Assembly: GCA_032251035.1 (NCBI GenBank)
Contig: JAVVEV010000023.1
Span: forward strand, 7,545 to 31,544
Reading direction: 5' to 3'
DNA: 24,000 bases
Source of the DNA: Thiogranum sp.
GTDB taxonomy: Bacteria > Pseudomonadota > Gammaproteobacteria > DSM-19610
This document shows positions 1,088-15,871 of the stretch, piece by piece (the stretch's first letter is position 1; each line of letters opens with the position of its first letter). The notes beneath the pieces are model-generated. The model saw nothing but the letters and a program-made list of their open reading frames with translations, did no database searches and was not told the DNA's origin. Position numbers and translations under genes: made by a program.

Positions 1088-2089
1088 CTAGCCATCGCCA
1101 TTATAAATACTCACTCTGATATCCGCATTGGCCGCATCATCCGTCAACGCCACATCATCTGTATAGCCATACGGGTCCGTAATCACACCGAGATCGGTCA
1201 GTATACGTCTGTAATCGGGCATCGCACGGCTGACCCTGTACTCGGCAAAAAGCAGTTTGAAAATTTCCACCCCTGCGAGTGAATCGAGCCGCTCCGCTAT
1301 CGAGGCGGCGGACATCGACTCGTGCTGGCAGCAATCCTTGAGTTCTTTGAGCACCCTGTCCAGGGTCATTTTATTCCGGGTTAGTTGCCTGAGTTTTATG
1401 TCCGCCGTCAGCCAGTAATGCACGCCGCTCCAGTGCACTCGCATGAAGCTGCGATACTTGCGCATATGATCACTGATCTCTACAAGCTCGATGTTAGACC
1501 ACTGGTTCTGTTTTTGCCCTCGAGCGAGACCGGCCGCCAGCTTGCCCCACAGGCCAGCTTCGCTCAAATGACCCGCGCGCGCCTGAATAATGTTCTGATA
1601 ATAGGTGGCAAGTCCTTCCGAAAACCACATATCGCCATACCCCCTGTACGGGATGAGCAAATGACTCAGCTCATGATATGCGGTCCAGTCACTCACGATC
1701 TCCTGAAAACCTGATTCAGCATCGAGAACCAGCAGCACGTGGTCTGGCTTGCCACGTGTAACCTGCCCCCAGGGTACCGGACTCTGAAGGCCCGAACCCT
1801 GTTTAATGGTGATATTGAATTTGTCGTCGGGCCATTCCCCGTAAACGGTCAGCAAAGCGTCGGAAACCATCTGTAACCATACATACGCCAGCTGACGTTC
1901 CTTTTTCGACATGGTGGATGCATAGTCGATATAGATACGCTGATACTGGTGCGCAATCGTGTCAGCACCTGCCGGCGCACTCACTGACAGCAAAGGCACC
2001 AGCGGGAGCACGTATCTCAAGCGCTGAAGCAGCCACAGACCGAATATCACGAACGCTGCGCAGTTCGGAAGTGCCAGCCTATCTGTCAA
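1088..2089 (-). CDS. Putative secreted zinc metallopeptidase, MA-clan (HExxH...E, Peptidase_MA_2-like)
   Basis: 333-aa ORF with a hydrophobic N-terminus. It has an HELSH motif followed 15 residues later by WFSEGLATYY, the gluzincin third-ligand context. The called TTG start overlaps the upstream TPR gene stop (TTGA), suggesting translational coupling. The family call is from motif memory only. Confidence 0.6.
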   Translation of the reverse strand: MTDRLALPNCAAFVIFGLWLLQRLRYVLPLVPLLSVSAPAGADTIAHQYQRIYIDYASTMSKKERQLAYVWLQMVSDALLTVYGEWPDDKFNITIKQGSGLQSPVPWGQVTRGKPDHVLLVLDAESGFQEIVSDWTAYHELSHLLIPYRGYGDMWFSEGLATYYQNIIQARAGHLSEAGLWGKLAAGLARGQKQNQWSNIELVEISDHMRKYRSFMRVHWSGVHYWLTADIKLRQLTRNKMTLDRVLKELKDCCQHESMSAASIAERLDSLAGVEIFKLLFAEYRVSRAMPDYRRILTDLGVITDPYGYTDDVALTDDAANADIRVSIYNGDG

Positions 2090-3147
2090 TTGGTCATCCT
2101 GAGTCCGGAGACCAGCGTCTGGATTTCGTCAAACATCTGCTGGCTGAATTCGATGGTTTCGGCGCGTTTTTCACCCGCGACTCTGATGGCTTCCAGACCC
2201 GCTCTGGCGATTCTGACTTGCGGGTGATCCTGACCGAAGTCTCCGCTCAAGAGAATCACTACCAGTTCAAACTGCGGTTTAGCTTCGTCCAGGCGTTTTC
2301 GTGATCCGTAGAAGCTTCCAAGTTCATTCAGAATGACAGCAAGCTCGAGGCGATCTTGTGCAGGCGCATCTTCCCAAACCTGTGCGGTTCGGCGATACAT
2401 CGCCGCCGCCTCAGAAAATCGTTTCTGATTTGAATAAAAATCGCCAAGATTGTGCATAGCCATGGCAGTATCCCGAGCATCCGCGCCGGCGCCTGTTTCC
2501 AGAAGATGCAGCGCCCGTTTAAGACGCTGTTCCGCGTCATCGAAACGTCCGTTCTTCATCGCCAGACCGGCCAGATCATTCAATCCTCTCGCGAGCGACG
2601 GGTGGATTGTTCCAAGAGCCTGCTCTTGTATTACCAGACTCCGTTCCAGCAGCTCCTCGGCCTCTGAATACCGATTCTGCGCAAGATATATAATTCCCAA
2701 CTCGTCGAGAACCAGAGCCAGCTTCAGGTCGTCGCCATTTAAACTGGATTGCGCGATCTCCACCACAGCCAGTTGATAGGCTTCAGCACTGGCATAATCT
2801 CCGCCCTTGAAGGCGTATCCAGCAGCGGCCCTCAAATAATCGGCGTTATCAGGATTCAGCAGCAATGCTTCTTCAATGAAGCGCTGCGCCAAATTGAAAT
2901 CTTTCCGATCTGCTGTAATCAGGCTCAGGTTGAACGCAGCCTCCGCTGCCTGTCGCCGCCTGCTCGTGCGTACCTGCTCGAAATAAAGCTCTGACGCTGC
3001 TTTGACTCCATCTTCCGGCTGACTCGACGAACCTGATGGGTCTTCGCCCATCAAATCAACCGTGGATGCCAGACCGCTGCCGCAGAATACGAGACTGAAA
3101 AACGACAGCGCGAATCGGAGTAATGTAGATCTGGACTGTGTGCCCAT
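2086..3147 (-). CDS. Secreted/lipoprotein-like TPR repeat protein
   Basis: Repeated TPR_10/12-like units, for example LALVLDELGIIYLAQNRYSEAEELLERSL and AMAMHNLGDFYSNQKRFSEAAAMYRRTAQ. I moved the start to the ATG at 3147 (MGTQSRSTLLRFALSFFSLVFCGSG), which has a strong RBS (GAAGGAGAAAATCT-ATG). The track start at 3234 adds 29 non-signal residues. Confidence 0.75.
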   Translation of the reverse strand: MGTQSRSTLLRFALSFFSLVFCGSGLASTVDLMGEDPSGSSSQPEDGVKAASELYFEQVRTSRRRQAAEAAFNLSLITADRKDFNLAQRFIEEALLLNPDNADYLRAAAGYAFKGGDYASAEAYQLAVVEIAQSSLNGDDLKLALVLDELGIIYLAQNRYSEAEELLERSLVIQEQALGTIHPSLARGLNDLAGLAMKNGRFDDAEQRLKRALHLLETGAGADARDTAMAMHNLGDFYSNQKRFSEAAAMYRRTAQVWEDAPAQDRLELAVILNELGSFYGSRKRLDEAKPQFELVVILLSGDFGQDHPQVRIARAGLEAIRVAGEKRAETIEFSQQMFDEIQTLVSGLRMTN

Positions 3148-3365
3148 AGATTTTCTCCTTCGATATTCATGGAAACGCGAAGCGGCCATGAGCACCTGTT
3201 GACGTCGATGTACGCAGTTACCGACGGTGCGCACAGACTATTTTGATCGGTCCGGTCATGCTTCGAGAAAAGTTATGACTGGTTAATTCTTTGTCGAACG
3301 AATTCCGTGGACATTACAGTTTTATCGCGCTGAGGGGCGGGATGAGCAACAGGCCGCAACCGATG

Positions 3366-3394
3366 GGAACCGATGAAGCAAATGACTTGTCTAC
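3366..3394 (+). promoter_or_regulatory. Candidate ECF-type promoter GGAACC-N17-GTCTAC upstream of the Gly/Tyr/His-rich gene
   Basis: The sequence is GGGAACCGATGAAGCAAATGACTTGTCTACCGG. It has the same architecture as the site upstream of the ECF sigma gene at 10995 (GGAACCG-N16-GTC-NNN-CGG). It lies about 75 nt upstream of the ATG at 3470 in the correct orientation. Confidence 0.35.
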
Positions 3395-3469
3395 CGGTTA
3401 GCGAGCGACACAGCAGCCATATGCCTACCTTTAAACGATGTCAGAAAACGACCCCACGGAGCCACAACC

Positions 3470-3784
3470 ATGAACAAGATCCCGGCCCTGAATTTTTCCG
3501 CCCTTTTGAAGATAGCCGCACTGATAATGATCATGTTTGCATTCACACCGGGCCAGGTACTGGCGGGTTATGGCTACGGCTACAGCCATCAGGACCGGCA
3601 CTACGGGTACCGGGGCGGGCATCAGCGAGGGAATTACGGGCACAATTACGTTTACAAAAACCGCTATTATGGAAGTCACGGCAGACATCACAGGTACTAC
3701 AACAGGGGATACTACAGCGGTTATCGCGGATCTAACGGGCATTCCAGCAGTCGTCGTCACGGGTCCTTAAAGCGCCATCGCTGA
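3470..3784 (+). CDS. Small secreted low-complexity protein rich in Gly/Tyr/His/Arg
   Basis: 104 aa. GGAG lies 8 nt upstream of the ATG. A 32-aa signal-like N-terminus ends in VLA. The 72-aa mature part has, by my count, 15 Tyr, 15 Gly, 12 Arg, 10 His and a single acidic residue. Three overlapping shadow ORFs on both strands are explained by the repetitive codon content. Confidence 0.55.
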   Translation: MNKIPALNFSALLKIAALIMIMFAFTPGQVLAGYGYGYSHQDRHYGYRGGHQRGNYGHNYVYKNRYYGSHGRHHRYYNRGYYSGYRGSNGHSSSRRHGSLKRHR

Positions 3785-3933
3785 TCAATAAAAAAACCGG
3801 ATTCGCAGACCCGGAATCCAGACAGGGCGCATAACCTTGCCACTGGATCGGCAGCATGCTGATGGCCATACCATGCTTATCATGAAACAATAAAAAACAT
3901 ATCGGCAGCTGAGTCCGATAGTCACCGGAGAAA

Positions 3934-4473
3934 ATGTTTATGCGACACCTGTTCCTGTTCCTGGCATTAATACTTACCCAGCCGGTTGGAGCCGATCAGT
4001 CCGCGCCACCGGCGGAAGGAAATACAATGGACAACGCGCGTCTGCAGGCACTCATTGAAGGTATTGCCACGGATATTGAGGGACAACCCGGCTACTGGCG
4101 CTTTGACATCGAGAGCTTTCCCGTGAGCGTGATAACAGACGAAAAGGCAGACCGCATGCGCATCATCGTTCCGGTCGCGGAGGTCGGCGCCATGGATGCT
4201 GAGCGGCTGATGCGCCTCATGCAGGCCAATTTCGATTCCGCACTGGATACGCGCTACTCGATTGCCCAGGGCCTGTTGTGGAGCGCGTTCATCCACCCGC
4301 TGTCGGCATTGTCTGATCGGCAATTTATCGATGGACTGGCGCAGACCGTCAATCTGGCCGCGACCTATGGCAGCAGCTACAGCTCCGGTGCCCTGATCTT
4401 CAGCGGCGGCGACAGCCAGGGGGAGCAGGACAAGATCTACCGGGCGATTATCGAGCGCGACAGCTCTATCTGA
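3934..4473 (+). CDS. Secreted hypothetical protein, tentatively CesT/YbjN-like chaperone fold
   Basis: 179 aa with a signal-like N-terminus, (MF)MRHLFLFLALILTQPVGA. The core DRMRIIVPV...LMQANFDSALDTRYSIAQGLLWSAFIHPL resembles CesT/YbjN-family proteins from memory. The alternative start at 3940 is better spaced from the GGAG. Confidence 0.45.
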   Translation: MFMRHLFLFLALILTQPVGADQSAPPAEGNTMDNARLQALIEGIATDIEGQPGYWRFDIESFPVSVITDEKADRMRIIVPVAEVGAMDAERLMRLMQANFDSALDTRYSIAQGLLWSAFIHPLSALSDRQFIDGLAQTVNLAATYGSSYSSGALIFSGGDSQGEQDKIYRAIIERDSSI

Positions 4474-4481
4474 GAAAGCTC

Positions 4482-4976
4482 TTGTTCACGCCGATGTTGT
4501 TCCTGTATCTGTTCATCGGTGCGTTCGCATCGGCGGCGGCGGCCAGCGATACATTGCCGGTGCACGATGCATTCGCGCGCGCCGACCGTGGTGAGCTGAC
4601 ACTCATCGACATCCGCAGCTCGCAGGAGTGGCTTGAAACCGGCATCCCCTCTCCTGCCCGCGCTTTGTCGATGTACGACCGGGATTTTCTGCTGCAACTG
4701 AATAACATCATCGTCGCGACCGACAACCGGCCAGTCGCATTTATCTGCGCCACCGGAAGTCGTTCCGCCTGGCTGAGGCAGGCGCTGGCGGCACGCGGCA
4801 TGTTAAATCTGCTGGATGTCCCGGAGGGCATGCTGGGCAATTCGGCCGGCCCTGGCTGGCTCCGCGCCGGCCTGCCGGTCCGTCCTTACGACGGTCCCGA
4901 CCCGCGGCACGCGCCGACCTACAGTCTCTGGGAGCGGTTGCGCGGTAGCTACCGGCCGCCCTGGTTCGCACATTAA
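4482..4976 (+). CDS. Secreted rhodanese-domain sulfurtransferase
   Basis: 164 aa with a signal-like N-terminus. It has a rhodanese active-site loop, CATGSRS, preceded by LIDIRSSQEW. The start is either the TTG at 4482 or the ATG at 4494. It lies 8 nt after the previous gene. Confidence 0.7.
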   Translation: MFTPMLFLYLFIGAFASAAAASDTLPVHDAFARADRGELTLIDIRSSQEWLETGIPSPARALSMYDRDFLLQLNNIIVATDNRPVAFICATGSRSAWLRQALAARGMLNLLDVPEGMLGNSAGPGWLRAGLPVRPYDGPDPRHAPTYSLWERLRGSYRPPWFAH

Positions 4977-5140
4977 CGCTGTGATTGAGCGATCACGGCA
5001 CCTGGAGTTGTAATAAATCCGCCCGCCGCACGACCAATCGTCAATATGCAGAATCCAGGACACATAGAGGAAGAAAGGCATGACCTCCGGCCCGCATTCG
5101 GCTCCACACTTCAACCTGGACAGCCTGACGGCGGTGAGAA

Positions 5141-6931
5141 ATGCGAACTAGACAGAGCGCCGGCATCAGTCTTCTTGCACTGACGCCGGTGGGTTCACCA
5201 CCAGCGCCCTGGCTGAGAATTGCGGGTCCGGTACTGGACCGCTTGCTTGGAATCCGCGCACTGGATTCGCTCTATCGGCAGCACCGGCTGCAGAGTCTGC
5301 CGCCCCTCGAATTTGCGTCCCGGACCCTGGAGATACTCGGAATATCGGTATCCACGACGCCTGCAGATTGGTCGGAGTACGTTCCGGCGCGAGGTCCGTT
5401 ACTGATCGTGTGCAACCACCCCTTCGGCGGCGTCGAGGCGCTGGCACTTGCCAGGGAACTCAAGGCGATACGCACCGACATCAAATTTCTCGCCAATGCG
5501 GCGCTCAAGGTATTCAGCGAGTTGCACCCCCTGTTCATCGCCACCAATCCGCTGAAAACCAGCCATGCGAATCAGGCTTCCATCCGTCATTGCCAGACGC
5601 ATCTTAGAGACGGCGGAGTCCTGGTCCTGTTCCCCGCGGGACGGGTTTCTTTTCAGCAGCATCACAAAGCCCGTATTGCTGACGGCCAGTGGCATCGCAT
5701 GGTCGGTCACCTGGCAAAAACCACCGGCGCCACACTGTTGCCAGTGTTCTTCCACGGCGCCAACAGCCGCCTGTTCCACGTCATGGGCCGCGTATGGGAC
5801 AGATCCAAATTACTGATGCTACCCCGTGAATTTCTTAAGCTGCGCGGTCGGCGGATCCGTTTCAACGTTGGCCGCCCGCTGCCACCGCCGCTCTGGCAAC
5901 ACATGAATGCCCCTGAACTGACGGCCTATGCACGTGTCATGACCTATCTGGCGCAAGACATGGACTGCGGAGAAACGCCGGCCAACGATGCTGGGACACC
6001 AGCCGCTGAGCTGGCACCGTATGGCGACAGGACTGCCATATGCAACGAACTCGACACTCTCCCGGCACGACAGAAACTGCTGGACTTCAAGCAATTCTCG
6101 GTCTTCTACGCCATGAGTGCACAGATCCCCACGCTGATGCGAGATATTGCCCGCGAACGCGAGCGCGTGTTCCGCCTCTATGACGAGGGCAGCGGGCAGG
6201 CGCGCGACACGGACGGCTATGATCGTAGCTATGTTCAACTGTTCGTCTGGGATCGCGACACTCAGTCGCTGGTCGGTGCTTACCGGATGGGTCGAACCGA
6301 TCTGCTCAAGCAACAATACGGTCCCGCAGGTAACTATCTAGCGCAGATGTTCGATTTTGATATGGACTTTCATGATCCCGCCGCCGCGGCCCTGGAACTG
6401 GGTCGATCCTTCGTGATACCCGAACACCAGAAAAGCTTTTATGCACTCTACCTGCTTTGGCAAGGCATTGGACACTATCTGGTCGCACACCCGCAATACC
6501 GAAGGCTGTACGGTACGGTATCTCTGTCCCGGCTGTATGATTATCGGGCAGTGCTTTCGCTCTGCGACGCGCTGATCGAGCCCTCGCCTCACGTCAGACC
6601 AAAACATCGGATGCTGAACACGCCGCATCCCGAATGGCGCGACTATCAGGCTATCAAAGGCCGCCCCGATCTCAAGACACTGTCGGCCATCGTTCGCGGA
6701 CTGGATGCAGGCGGCAGGGATATCCCCGTTCTGCTGAAGCACTACCACAAGATCGGGGCGAAGTTCCACTGTGTAGGCGTTGATCCCAACTTCAACAATA
6801 CGCCGGGATTGCTGTTATCGGTCGACATCGCCAGCATGACGCCGAAGCTGGTCTCCACTTTTCTCGGGAAGGACGCCGGTGCTTATCTGGCTTATGGGGC
6901 CGTGCACGACAACCGCGGACGTCCCGGATGA
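5141..6931 (+). CDS. Bifunctional acyltransferase: N-terminal LPLAT/PlsC-like O-acyltransferase plus C-terminal OlsB-like (GNAT-fold) N-acyltransferase (OlsF-like aminolipid synthase)
   Basis: 596 aa. The N-terminal half has CNHPFGGVEA (an NHPFG..D/E acyltransferase box) and FPAGRVS. The C-terminal half has YVQLFVWD...LVGAYRMG and LELGRSFVIPEHQKS, which is typical of OlsB/hemolysin-like N-acyl amino acid synthases. The domain order matches the published OlsF architecture. Confidence 0.65.
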   Translation: MRTRQSAGISLLALTPVGSPPAPWLRIAGPVLDRLLGIRALDSLYRQHRLQSLPPLEFASRTLEILGISVSTTPADWSEYVPARGPLLIVCNHPFGGVEALALARELKAIRTDIKFLANAALKVFSELHPLFIATNPLKTSHANQASIRHCQTHLRDGGVLVLFPAGRVSFQQHHKARIADGQWHRMVGHLAKTTGATLLPVFFHGANSRLFHVMGRVWDRSKLLMLPREFLKLRGRRIRFNVGRPLPPPLWQHMNAPELTAYARVMTYLAQDMDCGETPANDAGTPAAELAPYGDRTAICNELDTLPARQKLLDFKQFSVFYAMSAQIPTLMRDIARERERVFRLYDEGSGQARDTDGYDRSYVQLFVWDRDTQSLVGAYRMGRTDLLKQQYGPAGNYLAQMFDFDMDFHDPAAAALELGRSFVIPEHQKSFYALYLLWQGIGHYLVAHPQYRRLYGTVSLSRLYDYRAVLSLCDALIEPSPHVRPKHRMLNTPHPEWRDYQAIKGRPDLKTLSAIVRGLDAGGRDIPVLLKHYHKIGAKFHCVGVDPNFNNTPGLLLSVDIASMTPKLVSTFLGKDAGAYLAYGAVHDNRGRPG

Positions 6932-7461
6932 GGACAGCCAGCGTGAAATTGCAGGTCAATGACAATATCGCAACCCTGCAACAGGGTGCCAGGTTACTGC
7001 AGTGTATCGATGACGACCTGTACCGGCGCCGCATCGAAAATGTTTTCGCCACTTCCATCGGTGCTCACGTGCGCCACAACCTGGGGCATTACAGAATTTT
7101 TCTCGACGCGCTTGAAACCGGTGACATCGACTACAGCGCACGCTGCCGTGATGCCGCGATTGAAGTCGATCGCACCGCCGCACTGACTGAAACCGCCAAC
7201 ATCTGCGGACAGTTGCACGGAGTATCCATACTGCGCCAGGACCTGCAATTACAGATTCGCAACAGCCGCGGCGACGCCTGCGCAACGACATCGACCTGCG
7301 TCTCCCGCGAACTTGAATTCCTCCTCGGCCACACCATTCATCATTACGCAATTATTGCGATCATCTGCCGTCTGCAGGACGTGGCGCTCGAGGAAGGCTT
7401 CGGCGTGGCGCCATCCACTCTCTGTCACCTGGAATCATTGAAATCCGCATGTGTACGCTGA
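6928..7461 (+). CDS. DinB/YfiT-like four-helix-bundle metalloprotein (tentative)
   Basis: 177 aa. Its ATG overlaps the upstream stop (ATGA). The His-rich motifs GAHVRHNLGHY and LLGHTIHHYAII sit at the positions expected for a DinB_2-type His triad. The fold call is from motif memory only. Confidence 0.45.
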   Translation: MRTASVKLQVNDNIATLQQGARLLQCIDDDLYRRRIENVFATSIGAHVRHNLGHYRIFLDALETGDIDYSARCRDAAIEVDRTAALTETANICGQLHGVSILRQDLQLQIRNSRGDACATTSTCVSRELEFLLGHTIHHYAIIAIICRLQDVALEEGFGVAPSTLCHLESLKSACVR

Positions 7462-8195
7462 GCTGGAAGCCGATCGACGACGGTTATGTACTGATGTTCA
7501 ATCGTGATGAACAACGCTCGCGGACGCCGGCACTGCCACCCGATTTCGGACAGGTCGGCAGCGTGATGTTCCTGGCGCCGACCGATCCCCAACACGGCGG
7601 CACCTGGCTGCTGGTCAACGAATTCGGTGTAAGCGTTGCGCTGCTGAATCACTATCCCGAACCGATTCCGTCGTACCATGTGAATGCACCTTCGCGCGGC
7701 CTGCTGACAGTAGCGTGCGCCGATTGTCACAGTGTCGATACGCTCGTTAGCCGCGTACCTGGAATCGTGCCCACACCCTACGCGCCGTTCCGGCTCGTCG
7801 CGGTCGATCTGACCGGGGCAGTAGAGATTATCTGGGATGGGCGCACCCTGACATCCTCCCGCCTGCCGCTGCAAGGCGGCATGCTGACTTCGTCTTCGGT
7901 GCGATCGCAAGAAATTGAAGCCGCCCGTCGCGGCACCTTCGAACAGCTTGTCGGAGCAATCGAAGCAGCCACTGTCGCGCAGCTGGCACAATTCCATCAC
8001 CACACTGCCGCCGACGGCGCCAAGGGTATCCGCATGTCGCGCTCCGACGCGTGTACCCACAGCATCGCAACGATAACCGTGTCTGCAAAAACCGGGGCGG
8101 CCGCAATGGACTACCAGGCGCTGCTACCTGCGGATCCACAAGCCTGCGTCACGGTGATGAGACTGCCGCTGCAAGCGGGCAGCGCTCTGCCATGA
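7449..8195 (+). CDS. NRDE-family protein (TANGO2 homolog), Ntn-hydrolase-like with N-terminal Cys
   Basis: 248 aa beginning MCTLSW...LMFNRDE, the defining Met-Cys start and NRDE motif of PF05742. It overlaps the upstream gene by 13 nt. Confidence 0.75.
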   Translation: MCTLSWKPIDDGYVLMFNRDEQRSRTPALPPDFGQVGSVMFLAPTDPQHGGTWLLVNEFGVSVALLNHYPEPIPSYHVNAPSRGLLTVACADCHSVDTLVSRVPGIVPTPYAPFRLVAVDLTGAVEIIWDGRTLTSSRLPLQGGMLTSSSVRSQEIEAARRGTFEQLVGAIEAATVAQLAQFHHHTAADGAKGIRMSRSDACTHSIATITVSAKTGAAAMDYQALLPADPQACVTVMRLPLQAGSALP

Positions 8196-8971
8196 ACACG
8201 CCGACTCGCCCTTTCAACCAGCCCGTCAGCCGTCTCGGTAAAGCCGTCTTTGCCTGCCTCGGCTGGATGGAACGGCATATCATCACCCACTCTCGCGTCG
8301 GCGCCACTGCATTCTTTGACACGGCGCTGTTCCCCTGGGTAGATACATTCAAATCGGACTGGCCTGCCATACTCGCCGAGGCGCAGGCCGTATTGCCCGA
8401 CCTGCAGGACCTGCCGGCATTCCAGGACATCTCTCGGGAAGTGGCGTATATCACCAATGACGACAAGTGGAAAACGTTCATGCTGCTCGGCTACGGTATA
8501 CGTTCCGAGGTCAATCTGCGCCGCTGCCCGGCCACTGCCGGCGCCTTGCGACACATTCCCGGCATACGCACTGCTTTCTTCTCCATCCTTGAACCCGGCA
8601 AGAAATTGCCGCCGCACCGCGGCCCTTATAACGGTTTGTTGCGCCTGCATCTTGGGTTGATCGTACCGACACCCGCTGAACAATGCTGGATTCGCGTCGA
8701 TTCCGAACGTCGATATTGGCAGACCGGCGAGGTGATGATTTTCGACGACGCACTGAACCACGAAGTGCACAACGATACAGATGGCCTGCGTGTTATCCTC
8801 TTTATCGACTTCCTGAGGCCTTGCCGCTGGCCCATCAATTGGCTGAACCGCCTGGTGGTCTTTATCGCGCGTTTCAGCTCGCTGGTGCGCGACGCCCAGC
8901 GCAACCAGGCGCGTTGGGAACGGGATTTCTACTCGCGTCCACCGAAACCAGTCGGCAAGATCATCGACTGA
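8192..8971 (+). CDS. Aspartyl/asparaginyl beta-hydroxylase family Fe(II)/2-OG dioxygenase (LpxO/OlsC-like lipid hydroxylase)
   Basis: The motifs LPPHRGPYNGLLRLHLGLIVP and MIFDDALNHEVHN are typical of the LpxO/OlsC family. I moved the start to the ATG at 8192 (MNTPTRPF), which overlaps the NRDE stop (ATGA). The track start at 8051 lies inside the NRDE gene. Confidence 0.75.
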   Translation: MNTPTRPFNQPVSRLGKAVFACLGWMERHIITHSRVGATAFFDTALFPWVDTFKSDWPAILAEAQAVLPDLQDLPAFQDISREVAYITNDDKWKTFMLLGYGIRSEVNLRRCPATAGALRHIPGIRTAFFSILEPGKKLPPHRGPYNGLLRLHLGLIVPTPAEQCWIRVDSERRYWQTGEVMIFDDALNHEVHNDTDGLRVILFIDFLRPCRWPINWLNRLVVFIARFSSLVRDAQRNQARWERDFYSRPPKPVGKIID

Positions 8972-8989
8972 AATACCGGCTGATGTGCA

Positions 8990-9367
8990 TTACCTGTCGG
9001 CTTTTGTTGCCACTGCCTCAACTCGCGCTGTCGCAACCAGGGTCGATTCGGCCCGGATTCTGTCGCGTCTCAGCCGGCTCAGACTATGCAGCTGGTTCTG
9101 GCTGGGATTTACGAGCATCAGACCGATGCCTTGTCCTGAGCGGTGAATGACATAGCCACACATGCGCTGATCGTCTTTTGCTCTATAGTCGCGCGACACG
9201 ACTTCGATCTCTATACAGATGTGCACAGGACAGATTCCCGGCAAGCAGTCGATAAACAGACCCTCCCGACTTACGTTGCGAATTTTCCCACGTCCGGCGA
9301 ACTTACCACAACAATAGACAGCAACATCCGCAGACACATCAGTACGATTACAAAGTCGATGATCCAT
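8990..9367 (-). CDS. PilZ-domain c-di-GMP receptor
   Basis: 125 aa with RxxxR (RLCNR at residues 4-8) and (D/N)xSxxG (NVSREG). It has a strong RBS (AAGGAGAACCG-ATG). Confidence 0.65.
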   Translation of the reverse strand: MDHRLCNRTDVSADVAVYCCGKFAGRGKIRNVSREGLFIDCLPGICPVHICIEIEVVSRDYRAKDDQRMCGYVIHRSGQGIGLMLVNPSQNQLHSLSRLRRDRIRAESTLVATARVEAVATKADR

Positions 9368-9432
9368 CGGTTCTCCTTGATCTACGGGCTAACGGGTGCG
9401 TCACCTGTATAGTCGTGTGAACAAGGCAATCA

Positions 9433-10773
9433 TTACGCGTGATTATCGTTCGCGGCACTCGATGTGAGTGAGTCCGGGTCATCCTCCTCCCGGCCCACCG
9501 ATTGTGAAACCCGCGCGCAACGCGTGCGCTCGAAAACCAGGCTCGCGATGTCAGCGGGAAACAGCATTTCCCAGTTCCACGCAAAAAATATGCGCACCTT
9601 GCGTGCGAAAGTCGGGATCTTCAGCAGATACACTCCGCGCCAGAGCAGCCATGCGATGAAACCGGAAATGCGTACACCAAAAATCTCCGCCACCGCCTTG
9701 TTGTGCCCGATGCTGGAGAGCTGACCAATAGGCCGGTAACGAAACGGTCGCGTCGGCTCGACCCGCAACACGCGGGCAATATTGGCAGCAAGCTGAGTTG
9801 CCTGGCGTTCGGCGAACTGCGCGGTGGGTGGGCATATTTTGTTGTCATGGGCGTTAGGGATTGCGGCACAGTCACCGATTGCCCAGACCCCCTCATGCTG
9901 CGCGACTGACATATCCGTCCGCGTCACGATACGCCCGCGCTCCAGCGTCAAGCCAAGCTTCAGAGCCAGCGGATTAGGCGCGGTGCCGATGGTACAAATT
10001 ACTGTGGCAGCGTGAATGCGCTTGCCAGAGGCCAGCTCGACACCCTCGCCGCTAACGTTCCTGGCGCGCTCACCACAATAAATTTTTATCCCACGGCGCG
10101 TCATTTTTCGTTGGGTGAACGTACCGAGTTTGCGAGATATCTCCGGCAGCAGGTGGTTGCCGCTGTGTATGAGAATAACGCTGCATTCATCTCGCTTGAG
10201 GGAATCATAGTATCGCAAGGCACTGTGCAGAAAATCGCAGATCTCTCCGGCTGTCTCAACCCCGCTGAAGCCGCCGCCGACCACCACAAACGTGGTCAGG
10301 ACGCGGCGCCGATCCGGGTCGCGCTGCAGTGCGGCCTGTTCGAGACGCGTTATGATCCGGTTACGCAGGTACAGCGCATCGCCCAGCGTCTTCAGTGGTA
10401 GCCCATGCTCTGCCATGCCAGGCACCAGATCAAGGTTGGCGTGCATTCCGCAACAGATGACCAGCTGACCATAATGAACAGGCCCGCAAGATTCGCCCGA
10501 GACAAAGAGGGTTCTTGTGGAAAAATCGATATCCGTTACATCAACCATGCAGAAAGCACTGCGCCTTATCATCTGCCGCAACGGCGCAACAACATGTCCC
10601 GGCAGTATTGACGCGCCTACCACTTCCGGTAGCAGCGGATTATAGGTAATAAAATTCTGGCGACTGATAACAGCGATCGAACGACTTGCCGGCAGTCGGC
10701 GCGCCAGGCGCCTGGCCAGCGCTGCACCGGCAAATCCTCCACCGAGAATTACTACATCGTAATACTGGCGCAT
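9433..10773 (-). CDS. ndh: Type II NADH dehydrogenase (NDH-2), FAD/NAD(P)-binding oxidoreductase
   Basis: Two Rossmann motifs (VVILGGGFAGA and FVVVGGGFSGVE), the GDCA motif (VWAIGDCAAIPN), and a C-terminal amphipathic/membrane tail. I moved the start to the ATG at 10773 (MRQYYDVVILGGG) with GGAG 6 nt upstream. The track start is 10839. Confidence 0.8.
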   Translation of the reverse strand: MRQYYDVVILGGGFAGAALARRLARRLPASRSIAVISRQNFITYNPLLPEVVGASILPGHVVAPLRQMIRRSAFCMVDVTDIDFSTRTLFVSGESCGPVHYGQLVICCGMHANLDLVPGMAEHGLPLKTLGDALYLRNRIITRLEQAALQRDPDRRRVLTTFVVVGGGFSGVETAGEICDFLHSALRYYDSLKRDECSVILIHSGNHLLPEISRKLGTFTQRKMTRRGIKIYCGERARNVSGEGVELASGKRIHAATVICTIGTAPNPLALKLGLTLERGRIVTRTDMSVAQHEGVWAIGDCAAIPNAHDNKICPPTAQFAERQATQLAANIARVLRVEPTRPFRYRPIGQLSSIGHNKAVAEIFGVRISGFIAWLLWRGVYLLKIPTFARKVRIFFAWNWEMLFPADIASLVFERTRCARVSQSVGREEDDPDSLTSSAANDNHA

Positions 10774-10994
10774 ATTGCACTCCGGCTGCGCCGACGTTTC
10801 TGCGGAGTGATTGTCGGACGTTACGTCAGGCGGATTCATTGGGAAATTCTGACATGGTTGTATTCGAGCCTGCGGTGGTGGAGCTGCTACAGAGCAACAA
10901 AGTTATCGACAACATCAAGTCGTGCGAGTTCAAAGATCGGACGGCGGATGCGAACCGGCAGGAGCACGTTCTGCAAGGCGTTTCGGACACGGCA

Positions 10995-11023
10995 GGAACC
11001 GTCTGGCCACGCCGGTAGTCATA
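10995..11023 (+). promoter_or_regulatory. Candidate autoregulatory ECF-type promoter GGAACC-N17-GTCATA
   Basis: The sequence is AGGAACCGTCTGGCCACGCCGGTAGTCATACGG, about 40 nt upstream of the sigma ATG. The GGAAC-N18-GTC spacing equals that of the published SigR/SigH-type consensus (GGAAT-N18-GTT). The same pattern occurs at 3366. Confidence 0.4.
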
Positions 11024-11065
11024 CGGCATAATTACCCTCTTTCTCGGTCAGCCGGAATAACATGT

Positions 11066-11680
11066 ATGGGTGAAGCAGCCGACAACTCCGCCTTCCCGGA
11101 ACCGGATCCCGGGCGCTGGCTGCAGGATTATGGCGATGTGCTGTATCGCTACGCGCTGCAGCGTCTGCGCGACTCCGCACACGCCGAAGATCTGGTGCAG
11201 GAGACGCTGCTGGCGGCGTTTCAGGCGCGCGCAAGCTACTCCGGCCGTTCTTCCGAGAAGACCTGGCTCATCGGCATTCTCAAGCACAAGGTGGTTGATT
11301 TCATTCGCACGCAGGTGCGCGAGTCGACCGTGGATGACATCAGCGCCTTGTCGGACAAGGGAGTGGAACATGATATCGACGACCTGTTCGACGCACGCGG
11401 CTTCTGGGTGCGCCCGCCAAGGGATTGGGGGAATCCGGACGCGGCACTGCATAACGATGAGTTTCTTGCCGCCTTCGAAGCGTGCCTGGCGCGTCTGAAG
11501 CCCGCTCTTGCCCAGGTCTTCGCTCTAAAGGAACTCGTCGGCCAGTCCAGCGAAGAGATCTGCAGGGAACTCGGGATTTCGACCACCAACTGTGGCGTAA
11601 TGCTATATCGCGCCCGCATGGGGCTGAGGCGCTGTCTCGATGTGCAGTGGCCCGGCGGCAATTCCAAAGGCACAAAATAA
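11066..11680 (+). CDS. ECF (group IV) sigma-70 family RNA polymerase sigma factor
   Basis: The sigma-2 region is LYRYALQRLRDSAHAEDLVQETLLAAF...WLIGILKHKVVDFIR. The sigma-4 HTH is SSEEICRELGISTTNCGVMLYRARMGLR. I moved the start to the ATG at 11066 (MGEAADNS). The track start at 10922 adds 48 Arg-rich residues. Confidence 0.85.
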   Translation: MGEAADNSAFPEPDPGRWLQDYGDVLYRYALQRLRDSAHAEDLVQETLLAAFQARASYSGRSSEKTWLIGILKHKVVDFIRTQVRESTVDDISALSDKGVEHDIDDLFDARGFWVRPPRDWGNPDAALHNDEFLAAFEACLARLKPALAQVFALKELVGQSSEEICRELGISTTNCGVMLYRARMGLRRCLDVQWPGGNSKGTK

Positions 11681-11952
11681 TGCGGTCATGTAAAGACATT
11701 TCTTTTCTCGTATCGCAGTCACTGGACCGGAAACTTGCGTTGCGCGAGCGGCTGGGCCTGCACCTGCACCTGATGATGTGCAACGCCTGTCGGTGTATGG
11801 CAGATCAGATGAAGCTATTACAGGCTGCCTCTCTACACTATCAGATTACCGAGGGACTCGAGTCCCACTCGGCGCAACAGGCGCTTTCGAGGGAAGCAAG
11901 CGACCGCATTCTCGCGCGACTGCAGCAGGCTGCTCGCGAACGTTCCGATTAG
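11680..11952 (+). CDS. Small soluble zinc-binding anti-sigma factor (zf-HC2 / ZAS)
   Basis: 90 aa. Its ATG overlaps the sigma stop (TAATG). It has an H30-x3-C34-x2-C37 motif (HLMMCNAC) plus Cys4 located 26 residues before the His. I see no hydrophobic transmembrane stretch. Confidence 0.7.
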   Translation: MRSCKDISFLVSQSLDRKLALRERLGLHLHLMMCNACRCMADQMKLLQAASLHYQITEGLESHSAQQALSREASDRILARLQQAARERSD

Positions 11953-12172
11953 TGCTGCGCGTCGGATTCTCCTGGCGCCATTGAGTATTTTGTCATCTGG
12001 CAATTGGTCGGATTCCGGACCGGGACATTACAGATAAATTTATTAATGCGCCCTCCTCTACCGTCTACGCAGAGTCAACTGTAAAGATCGCCTGGCGAAC
12101 CCGACTACATCACTGAACGCCGGGTGCATATTTACCCGGCCAGGTGATGAACGCAACACAGGAGTCAGTCGT

Positions 12173-12760
12173 ATGCGCGGTCCAGCCTTTTTTATGTTAA
12201 TGATGCTCGCGTTCGCCGGCGTTGCAGCTACACCGGCACCTGAACAGCTTATTCGTGAACAGGCCGGAAACCTGCTTGCACACATCGCCGTTGAGCAAGA
12301 TGGCGAGAACCTGGAAAACCTGGTTGCAGAGATCATCGCGCCTCATGTGGATTTTGAGCTGTTCTCGAAACTGGTACTGGGCAAGCACCGGCGCTCGCTT
12401 TCGGCCGCCCAGCAACAGCGTTTCAGGAACGGAATGACGCACCTGGTGATAAAAACCTACGCGACGGCGTTGTCGGGCACATCCAAACTGGAGATCGAAT
12501 ACCAGGGTCTACAAGAGAACAAGAACCCCGACCGGGTGGTTGTGCTTACCGTGGTGAGCTCGTCAGGCAACCCACCTGTCAGAATCGATTACAAGCTGCA
12601 CCGGAGGGACAACATATGGAAAGTCTACGATGTCGCGATCGAGGGCGTCAGCATGGCCATTAATTACCGTACCGTCATAGCAGAACGGAGCAGCCTGGAA
12701 GGTATAGACGCCGCTATCGACAGTTTGTCGGAACGACCGGTTACACTGGCTGCGCAATAA
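12173..12760 (+). CDS. MlaC/Ttg2D-family periplasmic lipid-binding protein
   Basis: 195 aa with a signal-like N-terminus. The C-terminal WKVYDVAIEGVSMAINYR is characteristic of the MlaC family. No other mla genes are adjacent. Confidence 0.65.
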   Translation: MRGPAFFMLMMLAFAGVAATPAPEQLIREQAGNLLAHIAVEQDGENLENLVAEIIAPHVDFELFSKLVLGKHRRSLSAAQQQRFRNGMTHLVIKTYATALSGTSKLEIEYQGLQENKNPDRVVVLTVVSSSGNPPVRIDYKLHRRDNIWKVYDVAIEGVSMAINYRTVIAERSSLEGIDAAIDSLSERPVTLAAQ

Positions 12761-12864: not shown

Positions 12865-13710
12865 ATGAATCAAAATATCGGACGTTTTACCGATCGCGCC
12901 GCCTTACTGCTTCTTGCACCTCTAATCCTGAACGCGTCACTGGTTGTCGCGGAATCGGACGTTTATCGCAATCCTGTCGGTATGGAATTTCTTGAAATTC
13001 CCGCCGGCAGTTTCATTATGGGCACGCCGGATCTGGATGAAGCCATTGCCGAAAATCCGGACGGTCAGATCGATACGGTACGTGACGAACACCCCCCGCA
13101 TACAGTCACCTTCGCCACACCCTTTTATCTTGGCGCTACCGAGGTCACACAAGGCCAGTGGTTAGAGATTATGGACACCAGACCGGGGCCGGAAGCCTAT
13201 TGGTCGGACAGCGACTGGCAGCGCCTTCCGGTCGTCTCGGTAAGCTGGCACGACGCGCAACGATTCATTCAGCGTTTGCAGGTCCGCGACCCGAAAACAC
13301 GCTATCGACTGCCGACCGAAGCCGAATGGGAATACGCGGCGCGTGCCGGCACCCAGGGCCTGCGCCCGATGACAGTCCAGGCATTGCCTGAACAGGCCTG
13401 GTACATCAGGAATTCCGGCGACGTCCCGCATCCCGTTGCGGGCCGCGCGGCGAGTTCCTGGGGTTTGTACGACATGCTGGGAAATGTCTGGGAATGGACG
13501 CAGGACCGATATGCGCCGGATTACTACGCCCGCGCTGCGGATACTGACCCGCAGGGGCCGGCAACCGGCGACAAGCGTGTCCGTCGCGGCGGTTCCTATC
13601 ATTGTCCGCTGCACATGGTCCGGCCTGGCTACCGTTCCGCCGATGATCCTGATGCTGCATACTCCGTGATAGGCTTCCGCCTGGTCGCCGTACCGGATGA
13701 GCGCAGCTGA
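12865..13710 (+). CDS. Secreted FGE-sulfatase-fold protein (SUMF1/EgtB/PvdO family), probably not a true formylglycine-generating enzyme
   Basis: 281 aa with a signal-like N-terminus. Motifs are RLPTEAEWEYAARAG, GNVWEWTQD, RRGGSY and IGFRLV. Only one Cys sits in the RGGSYHCPLHMV segment where canonical FGEs carry a C-x4-C pair. Confidence 0.8.
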   Translation: MNQNIGRFTDRAALLLLAPLILNASLVVAESDVYRNPVGMEFLEIPAGSFIMGTPDLDEAIAENPDGQIDTVRDEHPPHTVTFATPFYLGATEVTQGQWLEIMDTRPGPEAYWSDSDWQRLPVVSVSWHDAQRFIQRLQVRDPKTRYRLPTEAEWEYAARAGTQGLRPMTVQALPEQAWYIRNSGDVPHPVAGRAASSWGLYDMLGNVWEWTQDRYAPDYYARAADTDPQGPATGDKRVRRGGSYHCPLHMVRPGYRSADDPDAAYSVIGFRLVAVPDERS

Positions 13711-15461: not shown

Positions 15462-15871
15462 GTCATCCGCCCGTTCGCCGGGTGTGACGGCCGGAATGCG
15501 TCGTCGAAGTGGCGGTCATGTCTTGTCCCTCATTGATTCAAATTGGCCTGCCATGGACTGTTTGCCTGTCCCGGGCGGCCGTCTGCATTTTTGTCGCGTC
15601 AACGACTGAATTCTTACGCCAAAAGCAGCCTTTTTGTAAGATTTTGCTGACGCTCTCAATGACTGAAAAACATTTGCACGCGGCAACCGGCTGGTTGATT
15701 TGCCCATGGCCTGGTGGATTTCCCCCAGCGAGTCACGGTGAACCGACCGGTCAGTCGGCCTGAAAAAGCGGCCCATGCTTCCGGGCATAGTTTCTGCATT
15801 TCTGCCGGAACAGCCGCTCCAAAGGAGCCGACCTGAAACTGGTGCTTAAACCATCAACAGGAGTGACAGCC

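Follow-up and report, generated by a model that had tools for sequence, protein, structure and literature searches.

In no fewer than four bacterial phyla, the gene pair encoding a DinB-like and an NRDE/TANGO2-family protein adjoins genes for OlsB/OlsF-type aminolipid synthases. In the window, a stretch of 24,000 nt from Thiogranum sp. (GCA_032251035.1, contig JAVVEV010000023.1, positions 7,545-31,544, forward strand), this pair lies between an OlsF-type synthase gene and an OlsC/LpxO-type hydroxylase gene. The analysis shows the order and overlaps of the genes, the folds and conserved residues of the proteins, and the linkage across phyla. The best explanation of the whole, to which we give about an even chance, is that ORF1-4 form a single operon that would make a phosphorus-free acyloxyacyl amino-acid lipid and that includes a conserved accessory pair.

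Gene overlaps and protein families of the operon

The genes and their junctions are listed below.

5141..6931, + strand: ORF1, 596 aa, OlsF-type bifunctional aminolipid synthase
6928..6931, + strand: ORF1/ORF2 start/stop overlap ATGA, read directly from the sequence
6928..7461, + strand: ORF2, 177 aa, DinB/YfiT-fold protein
7449..7461, + strand: 13-nt ORF2/ORF3 overlap ATGTGTACGCTGA, with ATG at 7449 and TGA at 7459-7461
7449..8195, + strand: ORF3, 248 aa, NRDE/TANGO2-family protein with Cys-Ntn-hydrolase fold
8192..8195, + strand: ORF3/ORF4 start/stop overlap ATGA, read directly from the sequence
8192..8971, + strand: ORF4, 259 aa from ATG 8192, OlsC/LpxO-type Asp/Asn-β-hydroxylase-family lipid acyl hydroxylase

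The chain of ATGA, 13-nt overlap and ATGA described in the earlier note agrees exactly with the ORF list and with direct reading, and, judging from these overlaps, the four genes would be translationally coupled. Among 39 non-redundant related loci, drawn from several phyla, 25 have the same 13-nt ORF2/ORF3 overlap, indicating that the arrangement is more than chance. Overlaps of the ORF1/ORF2 type were also found in L001, L002, L041 and L072 (ATGA; 13 nt in L002), the two counterparts abut with one base in common in L070, and the ORF3/ORF4 ATGA junction is also present in L001 (6741/6738).

ORF1 contained an N-terminal O-acyltransferase domain (PF19576) and a C-terminal OlsB-like N-acyltransferase domain (PF13444), and the NCBIfam OlsF model aligned over its full length (residues 31-571) with 318 bits, missing the equivalog cut-off of 620; the GlsA/GlsB and OlsB models scored much lower. 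ORF4 matched Pfam PF05118 (163 bits, E=5e-48), and its best NCBIfam matches were OlsC (residues 12-248, 278 bits, under the cut-off of 450) and then LpxO (133 bits, cut-off 500). An ORF4 start at the upstream GTG 8051 was set aside in favor of ATG 8192, because the OlsC alignment already begins at residue 12 of the 259-aa protein and homologues start at the equivalent position (L001, 6738-7520, 260 aa). OlsF is a bifunctional O-/N-acyltransferase that makes ornithine lipid, and its relatives yield other amino-acid lipids; OlsC and LpxO are aspartyl/asparaginyl-beta-hydroxylase-family enzymes that 2-hydroxylate lipid acyl chains. The aminolipid synthesis and hydroxylation pathway proposed earlier therefore stands as far as the types of the two end genes are concerned, whereas ornithine as the head group and 2-hydroxylation are predictions only, because both proteins score under the equivalog cut-offs.

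ORF2 itself fell below the threshold for Pfam DinB_2 (E=0.03), whereas its homologues exceed it, and the top Foldseek matches of its AF2 model (pLDDT 94.0) were all DinB/YfiT-like structures (TM 0.55-0.69). Residues H47, R49, H50, R72, R74, R127, H135, H138 and H139 are invariant in the family alignment, the family has a C-terminal GVAPSTL motif, and ORF2 has an extra β-hairpin (residues 107-124) and carries a probable metal site. Since the activities of DinB-fold proteins are very diverse, the fold does not fix the reaction of ORF2.

ORF3, which is 100% identical to an 'NRDE family protein' from a Thiogranum sp. MAG, matched PF05742 (TANGO2) with 33.7 bits (gathering cut-off 22.6) only in its N-terminal half, indicating a divergent subfamily. 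Its invariant residues are Cys2, N18-R19-D20-E21, N67, S82-R83-G84, S149 and R160, and the Cys-Ntn catalytic framework (Cys2, NRDE motif, Asn67) is invariant in an alignment of 27 diverse homologues. Human TANGO2, CV2077, isopenicillin-N acyltransferase and bile-salt hydrolase/penicillin V acylase were the top Foldseek matches of the AF2 model (pLDDT 93.8). The NRDE motif and Asn67 align to the NRDE (25-28) and Asn75 region of human TANGO2, residues that have been proposed to be catalytic (PMC13044924), and human TANGO2 binds C16/C18 acyl-CoA via its NRDE motif (PMC11867700). Since Cys2 directly follows the start methionine, methionine removal, not internal autoproteolysis, would expose it. 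The earlier family assignments were thus borne out, by the two Pfam domains and the full-length OlsF alignment for ORF1, by homologues and fold for ORF2, by the PF05742 score for ORF3, and by PF05118 with OlsC ahead of LpxO for ORF4.

Linkage of the pair to aminolipid synthases and stress genes

The survey anchored on NRDE comprised 39 non-redundant loci (41 if two duplicates are counted), and a DinB-like gene lies immediately 5' of the NRDE gene in 33 of them. An OlsB/OlsF-type N-acyltransferase gene is present in 21/39; in 19 of these loci it shares the strand of the pair, and in L032 and L035 it is on the opposite strand. It stands beside the pair in three independent formats: a fused OlsF-like gene upstream of the pair in Proteobacteria; split OlsB-like and OlsA-like genes down- or upstream of it in Verrucomicrobiota, Planctomycetota and Acidobacteriota; and a FeeM/Acetyltransf_5-cNMP fusion (L039). 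The exact four-gene unit occurs in only 5 of the 39 loci, so that the system is modular, the conserved set being the pair, an OlsB/OlsF-type N-acyltransferase and a third partner, which is an OlsC-like hydroxylase in Proteobacteria and an α/β-hydrolase-VTT-ATP-grasp fusion in the other three phyla. ATP-grasp amino-acid ligases are linked to the pair in 27 non-redundant loci (28/41 with duplicates). The earlier note had proposed a four-gene unit and had taken a linkage unique to this genome as evidence against it; the linkage of the middle genes to aminolipid acyltransferases recurs in all four phyla, but what is conserved is the modular set rather than the four-gene operon. Its view that the combination is not a described aminolipid cluster agrees with the literature searched, where no paper ties OlsF or aminolipids to DinB or NRDE/TANGO2, and where reviews of aminolipids published in 2024 and March 2026 include neither DinB/NRDE-type genes nor any degradative enzyme.

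The reverse sample comprised 10 ORF1 relatives (43-69% identity) whose contig includes the gene after the synthase; eight kept the DinB-like gene, seven of them directly after the synthase. Near relatives of ORF1 often have a DinB-like gene without NRDE or the hydroxylase alone: ORF1-clade genes lack NRDE in L042, L046, L070 and L072, and stand with the hydroxylase alone, both middle genes missing, in L044 and L071. The DinB-like gene of L073 (Colwellia) lies in an operon convergent to the OlsF-like gene. No ORF2-4 counterparts were found beside distant gut OlsF-like genes (~27% identity to ORF1), and no acyltransferase within 8 kb of the pair in the long contigs L004, L011, L013-L016, L036 and L040. 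Because the pair occurs without an acyltransferase, and ORF1-clade genes without NRDE or both middle genes, the link is facultative, and co-regulation rather than a single pathway could explain it.

Candidate regulatory features of the window are as follows.

5009..5034, + strand: candidate ECF-type promoter TGTAAT-N17-CGAC, predicted, found post hoc, 107 nt 5' of the ORF1 start
10922-11680, + strand: ECF sigma factor gene, candidate regulator judging from its recurrence
~11677-11952, + strand: zf-HC2 anti-sigma factor gene, candidate regulator judging from its recurrence

The window has 4 perfect copies of the promoter motif, where 0.35 would be expected, and each copy is intergenic and near a gene start; homologous operons of other loci do not conserve the motif in their upstream regions. 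In the window the ECF sigma/anti-sigma genes lie 2 kb downstream of the operon; in L002 and L072 such genes are direct neighbors, in L038 they are found upstream, and Colwellia L073 has them in the operon of the pair. ECF sigma/anti-sigma, YHS and bufferin genes recur near such loci, the window included (ECF sigma in 13 related loci, YHS in 12), and DoxX, AhpC/TSA and rhodanese genes also occur near related loci.

Proposed pathway and alternative explanations

The chemical steps, the pairing of ORF2 with ORF3 and the regulation that we infer would be as follows. ORF1, from its family membership, would N-acylate an amino acid, most likely ornithine, using a 3-hydroxy fatty acid whose hydroxyl it would next O-acylate, and ORF4, likewise from its family, would hydroxylate an acyl chain as OlsC does. 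ORF2 and ORF3 would serve as a conserved accessory pair of an aminolipid-type pathway, probably acting together at a fixed ratio that the conserved 13-nt overlap probably sets; the tailoring or turnover function that the earlier note suggested for them is a prediction. The freed Cys2 of ORF3 may attack a fatty-acyl carbonyl, probably that of an amide or thioester, namely the N-acyl amide of a (lyso-)aminolipid or an acyl thioester donor, to form an acyl-enzyme. This could be hydrolyzed for turnover or homeostasis, as by the hydrolases beside aminoacyl-phosphatidylglycerol synthases, or could pass its acyl group to another amine for head-group or acyl exchange, as in bile-salt hydrolase and isopenicillin-N acyltransferase. 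ORF2 may catalyze a metal-dependent step on the substrate of ORF3, and an ECF sigma factor probably turns on the whole unit in envelope, metal or oxidative stress. The aminolipid operon is best read as a stress-linked unit with a conserved accessory pair.

It is conceivable, if somewhat doubtful, that the pair belongs to a different pathway, as a module for thiol, metal or oxidative stress that neighbors the aminolipid genes solely via a common ECF-sigma envelope-stress island; it might then comprise a DinB-type thiol S-transferase and an Ntn amidase trimming its conjugates, much as glutathione or mycothiol conjugates are processed. The long contigs with the pair and without acyltransferases would fit this, as would the Colwellia pair in its ECF sigma/anti-sigma operon outside that of the OlsF-like gene, the stress genes nearby (YHS, ECF sigma, DoxX, AhpC/TSA, rhodanese, bufferin), and the mycothiol and bacillithiol S-transferases, characterized DinB-fold enzymes, among the fold matches of ORF2. 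However, same-strand overlapping or near-abutting operons with OlsB/OlsF-type genes, in varied orders and four phyla, exceed usual regulon clustering; ORF1/ORF2 overlaps persist where NRDE is missing, and in L070 the two genes abut; and no thiol-biosynthesis gene was consistently near the pair in the surveyed loci.

The facts that ATP-grasp ligases accompany the pair so often and that Litoribacillus L004 combines it with two stand-alone ATP-grasp genes and an MFS transporter, without an acyltransferase, suggest that the pair might instead make or modify the amino-acid head group before acylation, not the finished lipid. Candidate reactions, by analogy, are precursor oxidation or deprotection, as with the EgtB DinB domain and the EgtC Ntn amidohydrolase, or as with ATP-grasp-built peptides. 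The sub-cut-off OlsF score of ORF1 means that the head group may be unusual, and the four invariant arginines of ORF2 fit a small anionic substrate. Nevertheless, this seems unlikely, as ATP-grasp genes are absent from the window and from the other proteobacterial loci, the FGE domain that EgtB has is missing from ORF2, and the Ntn enzymes structurally nearest to ORF3 use acyl amides of lipids or antibiotics. Shewanella SO0126 (HtpA), the sole bacterial TANGO2 homologue that has been studied by experiment, has been reported to act in heme trafficking rather than as an enzyme (PMC10470608), and ORF3 shares its PF05742 family and fold. It is nevertheless highly improbable that ORF3 is such a heme-trafficking or heme-binding protein without an enzymatic lipid role, since the HtpA study itself reported that most homologues are not interchangeable (PMC10470608), heme trafficking by TANGO2 is disputed in later work (PMC13044924; PMC12782551), ORF3 belongs to a divergent subfamily, no conserved heme-protein or cytochrome-maturation gene was found beside the pair in the surveyed loci, and the strictly invariant Cys2 and Ntn framework would be needless in a heme carrier.

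Comparison with known systems

The two-domain PF19576 and PF13444 architecture of ORF1 is that of characterized OlsF proteins (Serratia proteamaculans Spro_2569, Flavobacterium johnsoniae Fjoh_0833, Vibrio cholerae VC0489/VCA0646), from which ORF1 differs in its sub-equivalog score, with a head group that is predicted, and in the overlapping DinB-like and NRDE genes that follow it, none being reported for characterized olsF loci in the searched papers. ORF4 has the Asp/Asn-β-hydroxylase domain of OlsC (the Rhizobium tropici ornithine-lipid 2-hydroxylase) and LpxO (the lipid A 2-hydroxylase), and scores under both cut-offs, with a presumed hydroxylation position. Aminoacyl-phosphatidylglycerol operons, in which an mprF-type synthase gene has an adjacent hydrolase gene (e.g., lpiA-acvB, PA0920-PA0919), would resemble the window in co-transcribing a lipid-forming enzyme with a possible bond-reversing enzyme for stress homeostasis, but they concern another lipid class, and their hydrolases are of the α/β-hydrolase or VirJ type, whereas ORF3 is of the Ntn type.

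ORF2 shares the four-helix-bundle fold and the H...H-x3-H pattern (H47 or H50, H135, H139) with the DinB/YfiT superfamily (B. subtilis YfiT, D. radiodurans DR0053, mycothiol S-transferase, the bacillithiol transferase BstA, EgtB N-domain, ClbS), and differs in its sub-threshold Pfam score, β-hairpin, four invariant arginines and GVAPSTL motif, and in that proteins of its type are always accompanied by NRDE or OlsF-like genes. ORF3 shares the fold and N-terminal Cys nucleophile position with bile-salt hydrolase, penicillin V acylase, acyl-CoA:isopenicillin-N acyltransferase, acid ceramidase and NAAA, enzymes that act on fatty or acyl amide bonds by cleavage or transfer, and aminolipids are defined by bonds of this kind; with 10-16% identity and a smaller size (248 aa), its activity is predicted by analogy. 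Human TANGO2 (PDB 8sv7, 9bwa) and Shewanella HtpA belong to the Pfam family of ORF3 and share its αββα fold, its N-terminal Cys2 and its NRDE motif; ORF3 differs in its identity of only ~20%, in a Pfam match confined to its N-terminal half, and in lying in an aminolipid operon where theirs are stand-alone genes. With ORF3, a bacterial aminolipid operon includes a protein related to TANGO2, which is a human disease gene, and the position of the pair beside lipid synthases in at least four phyla therefore provides a testable clue to TANGO2-family substrates.

Gene order and family assignments of the operon

The operon consists of four open reading frames (ORFs) on the same strand:

5141-6931, plus strand, ORF1, OlsF-like protein, 596 aa
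6928-7461, plus strand, ORF2, DinB-like protein, 177 aa
7449-8195, plus strand, ORF3, NRDE/TANGO2-like protein, 248 aa
8192-8971, plus strand, ORF4, OlsC/LpxO-like protein, 259 aa counted from the ATG at 8192

The ORF listing and direct reading of the sequence gave exactly the ORFs and junctions that the earlier note had claimed, namely an ATGA joining ORF1 and ORF2 (6928-6931), a 13-nt overlap between ORF2 and ORF3 (7449-7461), and a second ATGA joining ORF3 and ORF4 (8192-8195). Upstream, the operon is bordered by a 164-nt intergenic stretch 3′ of a rhodanese gene (4482-4976), and a PilZ gene in convergent orientation (8990-9367, minus strand) borders it on the other side, downstream. The ORF1, ORF2 and ORF3 proteins each have a 100% identical counterpart on a single 47-kb contig of a Thiogranum sp. 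MAG, a gammaproteobacterium.

ORF1 carries an N-terminal O-acyltransferase domain (PF19576, residues 49-270) and a C-terminal OlsB-like N-acyltransferase domain (PF13444, residues 340-440) on one polypeptide according to Pfam, which is the architecture of OlsF. The NCBIfam OlsF model aligned to it end to end (residues 31-571) with 318.1 bits, below the equivalog cut-off of 620 bits, and the GlsA/GlsB (glycine-lipid) and OlsB models scored far lower. ORF4 contains an Asp/Asn-β-hydroxylase domain (PF05118, 163.3 bits, residues 55-210; Pfam); its top NCBIfam model was OlsC at 277.9 bits, short of the equivalog cut-off of 450, followed by LpxO at 133.4 bits against a cut-off of 500. ORF1 and ORF4 are thus very probably an aminolipid synthase and hydroxylase. 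OlsF forms ornithine lipid via N- and then O-acylation, and OlsC 2-hydroxylates the ester-linked chain of this lipid (2024 aminolipid review; March 2026 ornithine-lipid review). At the coordinates used, the ORF1 homologue in locus L006 contained an in-frame stop.

ORF2 matched DinB_2 at E=0.03 and 15.2 bits, under the Pfam gathering score of 24.8, and its orthologues in Litoribacillus peritrichatus (L004; 29.5 and 29.1 bits) and Tepidiphilus (L002; 26.1 bits) exceeded the Pfam threshold for the DinB superfamily (PF12867/PF05163). The AF2 model of ORF2 (pLDDT 94.0) is predicted to adopt the DinB/YfiT four-helix-bundle fold, and its best 28 Foldseek matches in the PDB were all DinB/YfiT-like (1rxq, TM 0.69; 6iz2, TM 0.67). 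The usual metal site of DinB proteins follows an H...H-x3-H pattern, and this pattern was present in ORF2 as a putative metal site seen in the alignment. Residues H47, R49, H50, R72, R74, R127, H135, H138 and H139 were invariant in 30 ORF2 homologues, which also share a GVAPSTL motif. An EgtB/EgtC-like ergothioneine logic was rejected: the FGE domain is missing from ORF2, and the FGE-sulfatase gene (12865-13710) is a separate gene 4 kb off.

ORF3 matched PF05742 (TANGO2) with 33.7 bits, above the gathering score of 22.6, the match being limited to profile positions 15-138 of 257. Residues C2, R19, D20, E21, N67, S82-R83-G84, S149 and R160 were invariant in 27 homologues, and N18 was near-invariant (at least 90% of the 27 sequences). 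The protein begins with Met-Cys and has an NRDE motif that aligns with that of human TANGO2; R19, D20 and N67 align with human R26, D27 and N75, the catalytic residues proposed for TANGO2 (PMC13044924). Cys2 adjoins Met1, and together with the conserved Arg, Asp and Asn it would form a Cys-Ntn arrangement upon a presumed removal of Met. The AF2 model (pLDDT 93.8) has a predicted four-layer αββα fold, for which Foldseek returned human TANGO2 (E=1e-11, TM 0.67-0.69) and the bacterial PF05742 protein CV2077 (TM 0.73); the other nearest structures were acyl-CoA:isopenicillin-N acyltransferase and bile-salt hydrolase/penicillin V acylase. Given these profile matches (Pfam/NCBIfam), fold models and conserved residues in homologues, the four labels assigned by the earlier note are right at family level.

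Conservation of the DinB-NRDE pair and its partners

The survey anchored on NRDE genes covered 39 non-redundant loci (the window plus L001-L040, minus two duplicates), with a genome scan on a 10-sequence alignment among its sources and genes mapped by tblastn of defined queries. At E <= 1e-3 the NRDE subfamily itself comprises 3,755 representatives of 50%-identity clusters, and 2,203 under the stricter limit of E <= 1e-10. A DinB-like gene lay directly upstream of NRDE in 33 of the 39 loci and took another position in 3 others, and an identical 13-nt overlap (ATGTGYACNNTRA) joined the two genes in 25 loci, the window included. This conserved overlap suggests that the ORF2 and ORF3 proteins act as a pair. 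The C-terminal Cys-x-Arg/Gln of ORF2 was rejected as a functional motif: the DinB-like tail, Cys-(Ala/Val)-(Arg/Gln/His), is encoded by the bases of the invariant NRDE start Met-Cys-Thr read in another frame (window 7449-7461 and 24 other loci), and it is missing from every locus in which the two genes do not overlap. The simplest explanation is that the overlap produces this tail as a side effect, without independent selection for it. Similarly, the 415-aa homologue P0052 was not counted as a true DinB-NRDE fusion, its junction resembling a frameshift read-through of the overlap.

An N-acyltransferase of OlsB/OlsF type was present in 21 of the 39 loci, several of the remainder being short contigs, and three independent N-acyltransferase formats stood beside the pair. 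Proteobacteria have a fused OlsF-like gene immediately upstream (window, L001, L002, L005, L006, L008, L031). Verrucomicrobiota, Planctomycetota and Acidobacteriota have split genes with OlsB and OlsA as best NCBIfam matches (L003, L009, L010, L018, L019, L023, L026-L029, L032, L035, L038). The third format occurs in L039 (8468-10907), where the DinB-like and then the NRDE gene are followed by a fusion of FeeM/Acetyltransf_5 (N-acyl-amino-acid synthase) with a cyclic-nucleotide-binding domain; the DinB-like gene of this locus was missed by the gene calling on record. OlsC-like genes were found in only 5 of the 39 loci, every one proteobacterial.

Outside Proteobacteria, 27 non-redundant loci carry 3′ of the pair a fusion of α/β-hydrolase, VTT/DedA (UptA-like) and ATP-grasp (RimK/cyanophycin-synthetase-like) domains, 540-900 aa in size and sometimes without the α/β-hydrolase domain. 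The phyla with this arrangement are Verrucomicrobiota, Planctomycetota and Acidobacteriota, and olsB/olsA-like genes often come after the fusion gene (for example L003 6748-8664, L009 6445-9153, L011 8747-11383, L013 8844-11432 and L026 8677-11238). The fusion protein could ligate an amine to the carboxylate of the lipid head group and flip the product. In Litoribacillus L004, the DinB-like and NRDE genes close a same-strand run (1359-6771) that starts with a YHS gene and a gene for a 175-aa protein and continues with two ATP-grasp genes, of which one is cyanophycin-synthetase/GshB-like (148 bits), and then an MFS transporter gene; no acyltransferase was found in this locus, and the run looks like a small-molecule pathway.

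The reverse survey was anchored on ORF1 relatives and covered L041-L044, L046, L070-L073 and gut metagenomes.

Gene order at loci of the reverse survey
L041: OlsF-DinB-NRDE-AhpC
L042: OlsF-DinB-OlsC
L043: OlsF-DinB, then contig end
L044 and L071: OlsF-OlsC only
L046: OlsF-DinB-YHS
L070: OlsF-DinB
L072: BufA1-MNIO-DUF2063-DoxX-OlsF-DinB-ECF sigma-anti-sigma
L073 (Colwellia, 43% identity): OlsF-like, in convergent orientation to an ECF sigma-anti-sigma-DinB-NRDE operon

No ORF2, ORF3 or ORF4 relatives were found beside the OlsF-like genes of gut metagenomes (about 27% identity). Therefore, from the ORF3- and ORF1-anchored surveys together, the linkage is real and spans phyla but is modular, and the DinB-like gene is its hinge, with close joins both to the OlsF-like gene and, at its other end, to NRDE. 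The earlier note had proposed conserved linkage as its own test of a four-gene aminolipid operon with new functions for the two middle genes: the linkage does recur across phyla, but the four-gene unit is not conserved as such. That interpretation thus has partial support, what is conserved being a modular unit and the functions being putative.

Two loci had irregular NRDE genes. In a Lysobacterales MAG (L031, 5064-5539), NRDE matched only residues 1-69 and 161-241 of ORF3, a sign that about 90 aa have been lost internally from a gene that is possibly decaying, and the neighbouring OlsF-like, DinB-like and OlsC-like genes were intact. The NRDE match in L036 (8001-8712) was split too.

Stress-gene surroundings and putative ECF control

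Downstream of the operon, the window contains the following genes:

10922-11680, ECF sigma factor
about 11677-11952, zf-HC2 anti-sigma factor
12173-12760, plus strand, MlaC
12865-13710, FGE-sulfatase protein
13746-15461, minus strand, GGDEF-EAL protein
15842-16198, plus strand, DUF2282 bufferin precursor (77.8 bits)
16215-17102, plus strand, MNIO/MbnB (351 bits)
17086-17874, plus strand, DUF2063
ending at 18452, plus strand, DoxX
19167-19907, plus strand, AhpC/TSA protein

The DUF2282, MNIO, DUF2063 and DoxX genes make up a complete bufferin-type RiPP cluster, with AhpC/TSA following. Bufferins are ECF-controlled metallophores of copper stress (PMC11626156). This stress/bufferin gene set also flanks OlsF-DinB-NRDE in Tepidiphilus L002 and recurs in L072, and in both L072 and L042 bufferin genes stand immediately before the OlsF-like gene. 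ECF sigma genes occurred in 13 surveyed loci and YHS-domain proteins in 12 (L004, L010, L018, L019, L022, L023, L027, L030, L033, L035, L038, L046), where secreted YHS proteins, with a putative metal-binding domain, are encoded immediately next to the pair or to the OlsF-like gene. DoxX and AhpC/TSA genes were recurrent neighbours too.

The motif TGTAA-N16-18-CGAC, derived post hoc from two of its sites, had 4 exact matches in the window against 0.35 expected, a count that none of 100 shuffles reached; its extended, ECF-promoter-like consensus reads cTGTAAT-N16/17-CCGACcaa.

Motif sites in the window
3293-3318, minus strand, exact, upstream of the TPR/M61 operon
5009-5034, plus strand, exact, 107 nt upstream of ORF1
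12007-12032, minus strand, exact, pointing leftwards from the anti-sigma/MlaC gap
12080-12105, plus strand, exact, upstream of MlaC
9412-9437, minus strand, one mismatch, upstream of PilZ
15593-15618, minus strand, one mismatch, upstream of GGDEF-EAL

All four exact sites are intergenic and near gene starts. No shared ECF promoter was found upstream of OlsF-like genes or homologous operons in other loci, the support coming from the window only. As far as sequence goes, ECF control of the operon is plausible, and the arrangement suggests that the window may be an ECF regulon island.

Two further kinds of neighbours were observed. Cyclic-di-GMP genes flank the operon, as PilZ and GGDEF-EAL (both on the minus strand) in the window and as a GGDEF-EAL gene (6750-9023, minus strand) directly after NRDE in Tepidiphilus L002. 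Parts of the Mla lipid-trafficking system lie near the operon in two loci, as MlaC in the window, with its ECF-like motif upstream, and as MlaA in Thiobacillus L001 (2708-3538, minus strand).

Possible roles of the accessory pair

The substrates of Cys-Ntn enzymes are non-peptide acyl amides, which they hydrolyse or transfer via an acyl-enzyme on the N-terminal Cys. In ORF3, removal of Met would free Cys2 for catalysis, and Cys2 could then act on the fatty-acyl amide of an aminolipid or lyso-aminolipid or on an acyl thioester donor, the bond being hydrolysed (turnover and homeostasis) or the acyl group transferred (head-group or acyl exchange), with ORF2 contributing a metal-dependent step. 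It seems fairly probable that the pair belongs to the same pathway as the synthase and hydroxylase; the specific acyl-amidase or transacylase chemistry is a doubtful possibility. TANGO2 has a Cys-Ntn architecture and binds long-chain acyl-CoA through its NRDE motif (PMC11867700, PMC13044924), and neither amide hydrolysis nor Cys acyl transfer has been reported for any NRDE-family protein (PMC13044924). The full reading, a new enzyme couple of aminolipid metabolism whose TANGO2-type member is a Cys-Ntn fatty-acyl amidase/transacylase on N-acyl amino-acid lipids, is rather unlikely as a whole and is offered tentatively.

The pair-only loci, the Colwellia L073 arrangement and the stress-gene neighbours would also fit a module of its own, for thiol, metal or oxidative stress, whose regulon is all that it shares with the lipid genes; this is possible if doubtful, and the same-operon organisation, repeated in differing gene orders across phyla, argues against it. 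A role of the pair in making or altering the head group ahead of acylation appears distinctly unlikely: the ATP-grasp linkage, the arginine-rich pocket of ORF2 and Litoribacillus L004, where two ATP-grasp genes, an MFS gene and a YHS gene occur with no acyltransferase, point towards it, but proteobacterial loci have no ATP-grasp gene. The sole bacterial TANGO2 study found concerns heme (PMC10470608), yet an HtpA-like heme carrier is a very improbable role for ORF3, whose catalytic framework is invariant and whose neighbourhood does not speak for it: the surveyed loci show no conservation of ccm or heme genes near the pair.

Ornithine lipids and their aminolipid relatives are membrane lipids of wide occurrence with links to stress, and the known aminolipid gene set comprises OlsBA, OlsF, OlsH and OlsC/D/E/G. 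Full-text searches found no paper combining OlsF with TANGO2 and no mention of an NRDE-family or DinB gene in aminolipid papers. The March 2026 ornithine-lipid review mentions neither NRDE nor DinB, the 2024 aminolipid review makes no mention of hydrolases or degradation, and the bufferin and MNIO papers, including the landscape paper, do not mention DinB, NRDE or acyltransferase neighbours. N-acyl-dehydrotyrosine (NasY) clusters, also checked, have ThiF and nitroreductase genes instead and are unrelated. The literature searched thus agrees with the earlier note that this gene combination had not been described, and the operon is therefore an aminolipid cluster whose accessory pair is widely conserved but new to the papers covered. 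Among the steps of ornithine-lipid metabolism, the March 2026 review lists ATP-dependent transfer of taurine as one whose enzyme and gene are still to be identified; the pair and its α/β-hydrolase-VTT-ATP-grasp partner are concrete candidates for the taurine-transfer and degradation gaps.

TANGO2 is a human disease gene without an established biochemical function or substrate (PMC13044924, PMC11867700), and the current proposals for it are heme carriage, acyl-CoA binding, or hydrolysis of fatty-acid conjugates as a Cys-Ntn enzyme. The bacterial NRDE subfamily sits in operons whose product bears a fatty-acyl amide bond, which makes the TANGO2 substrate question testable in a simple system. If the amidase/transacylase reading were true, the TANGO2/NRDE family would for the first time have an enzymatic activity and a class of natural substrates, and the substrates still sought for human TANGO2 would be suspected among N-acyl amide or acyl-thioester lipids.
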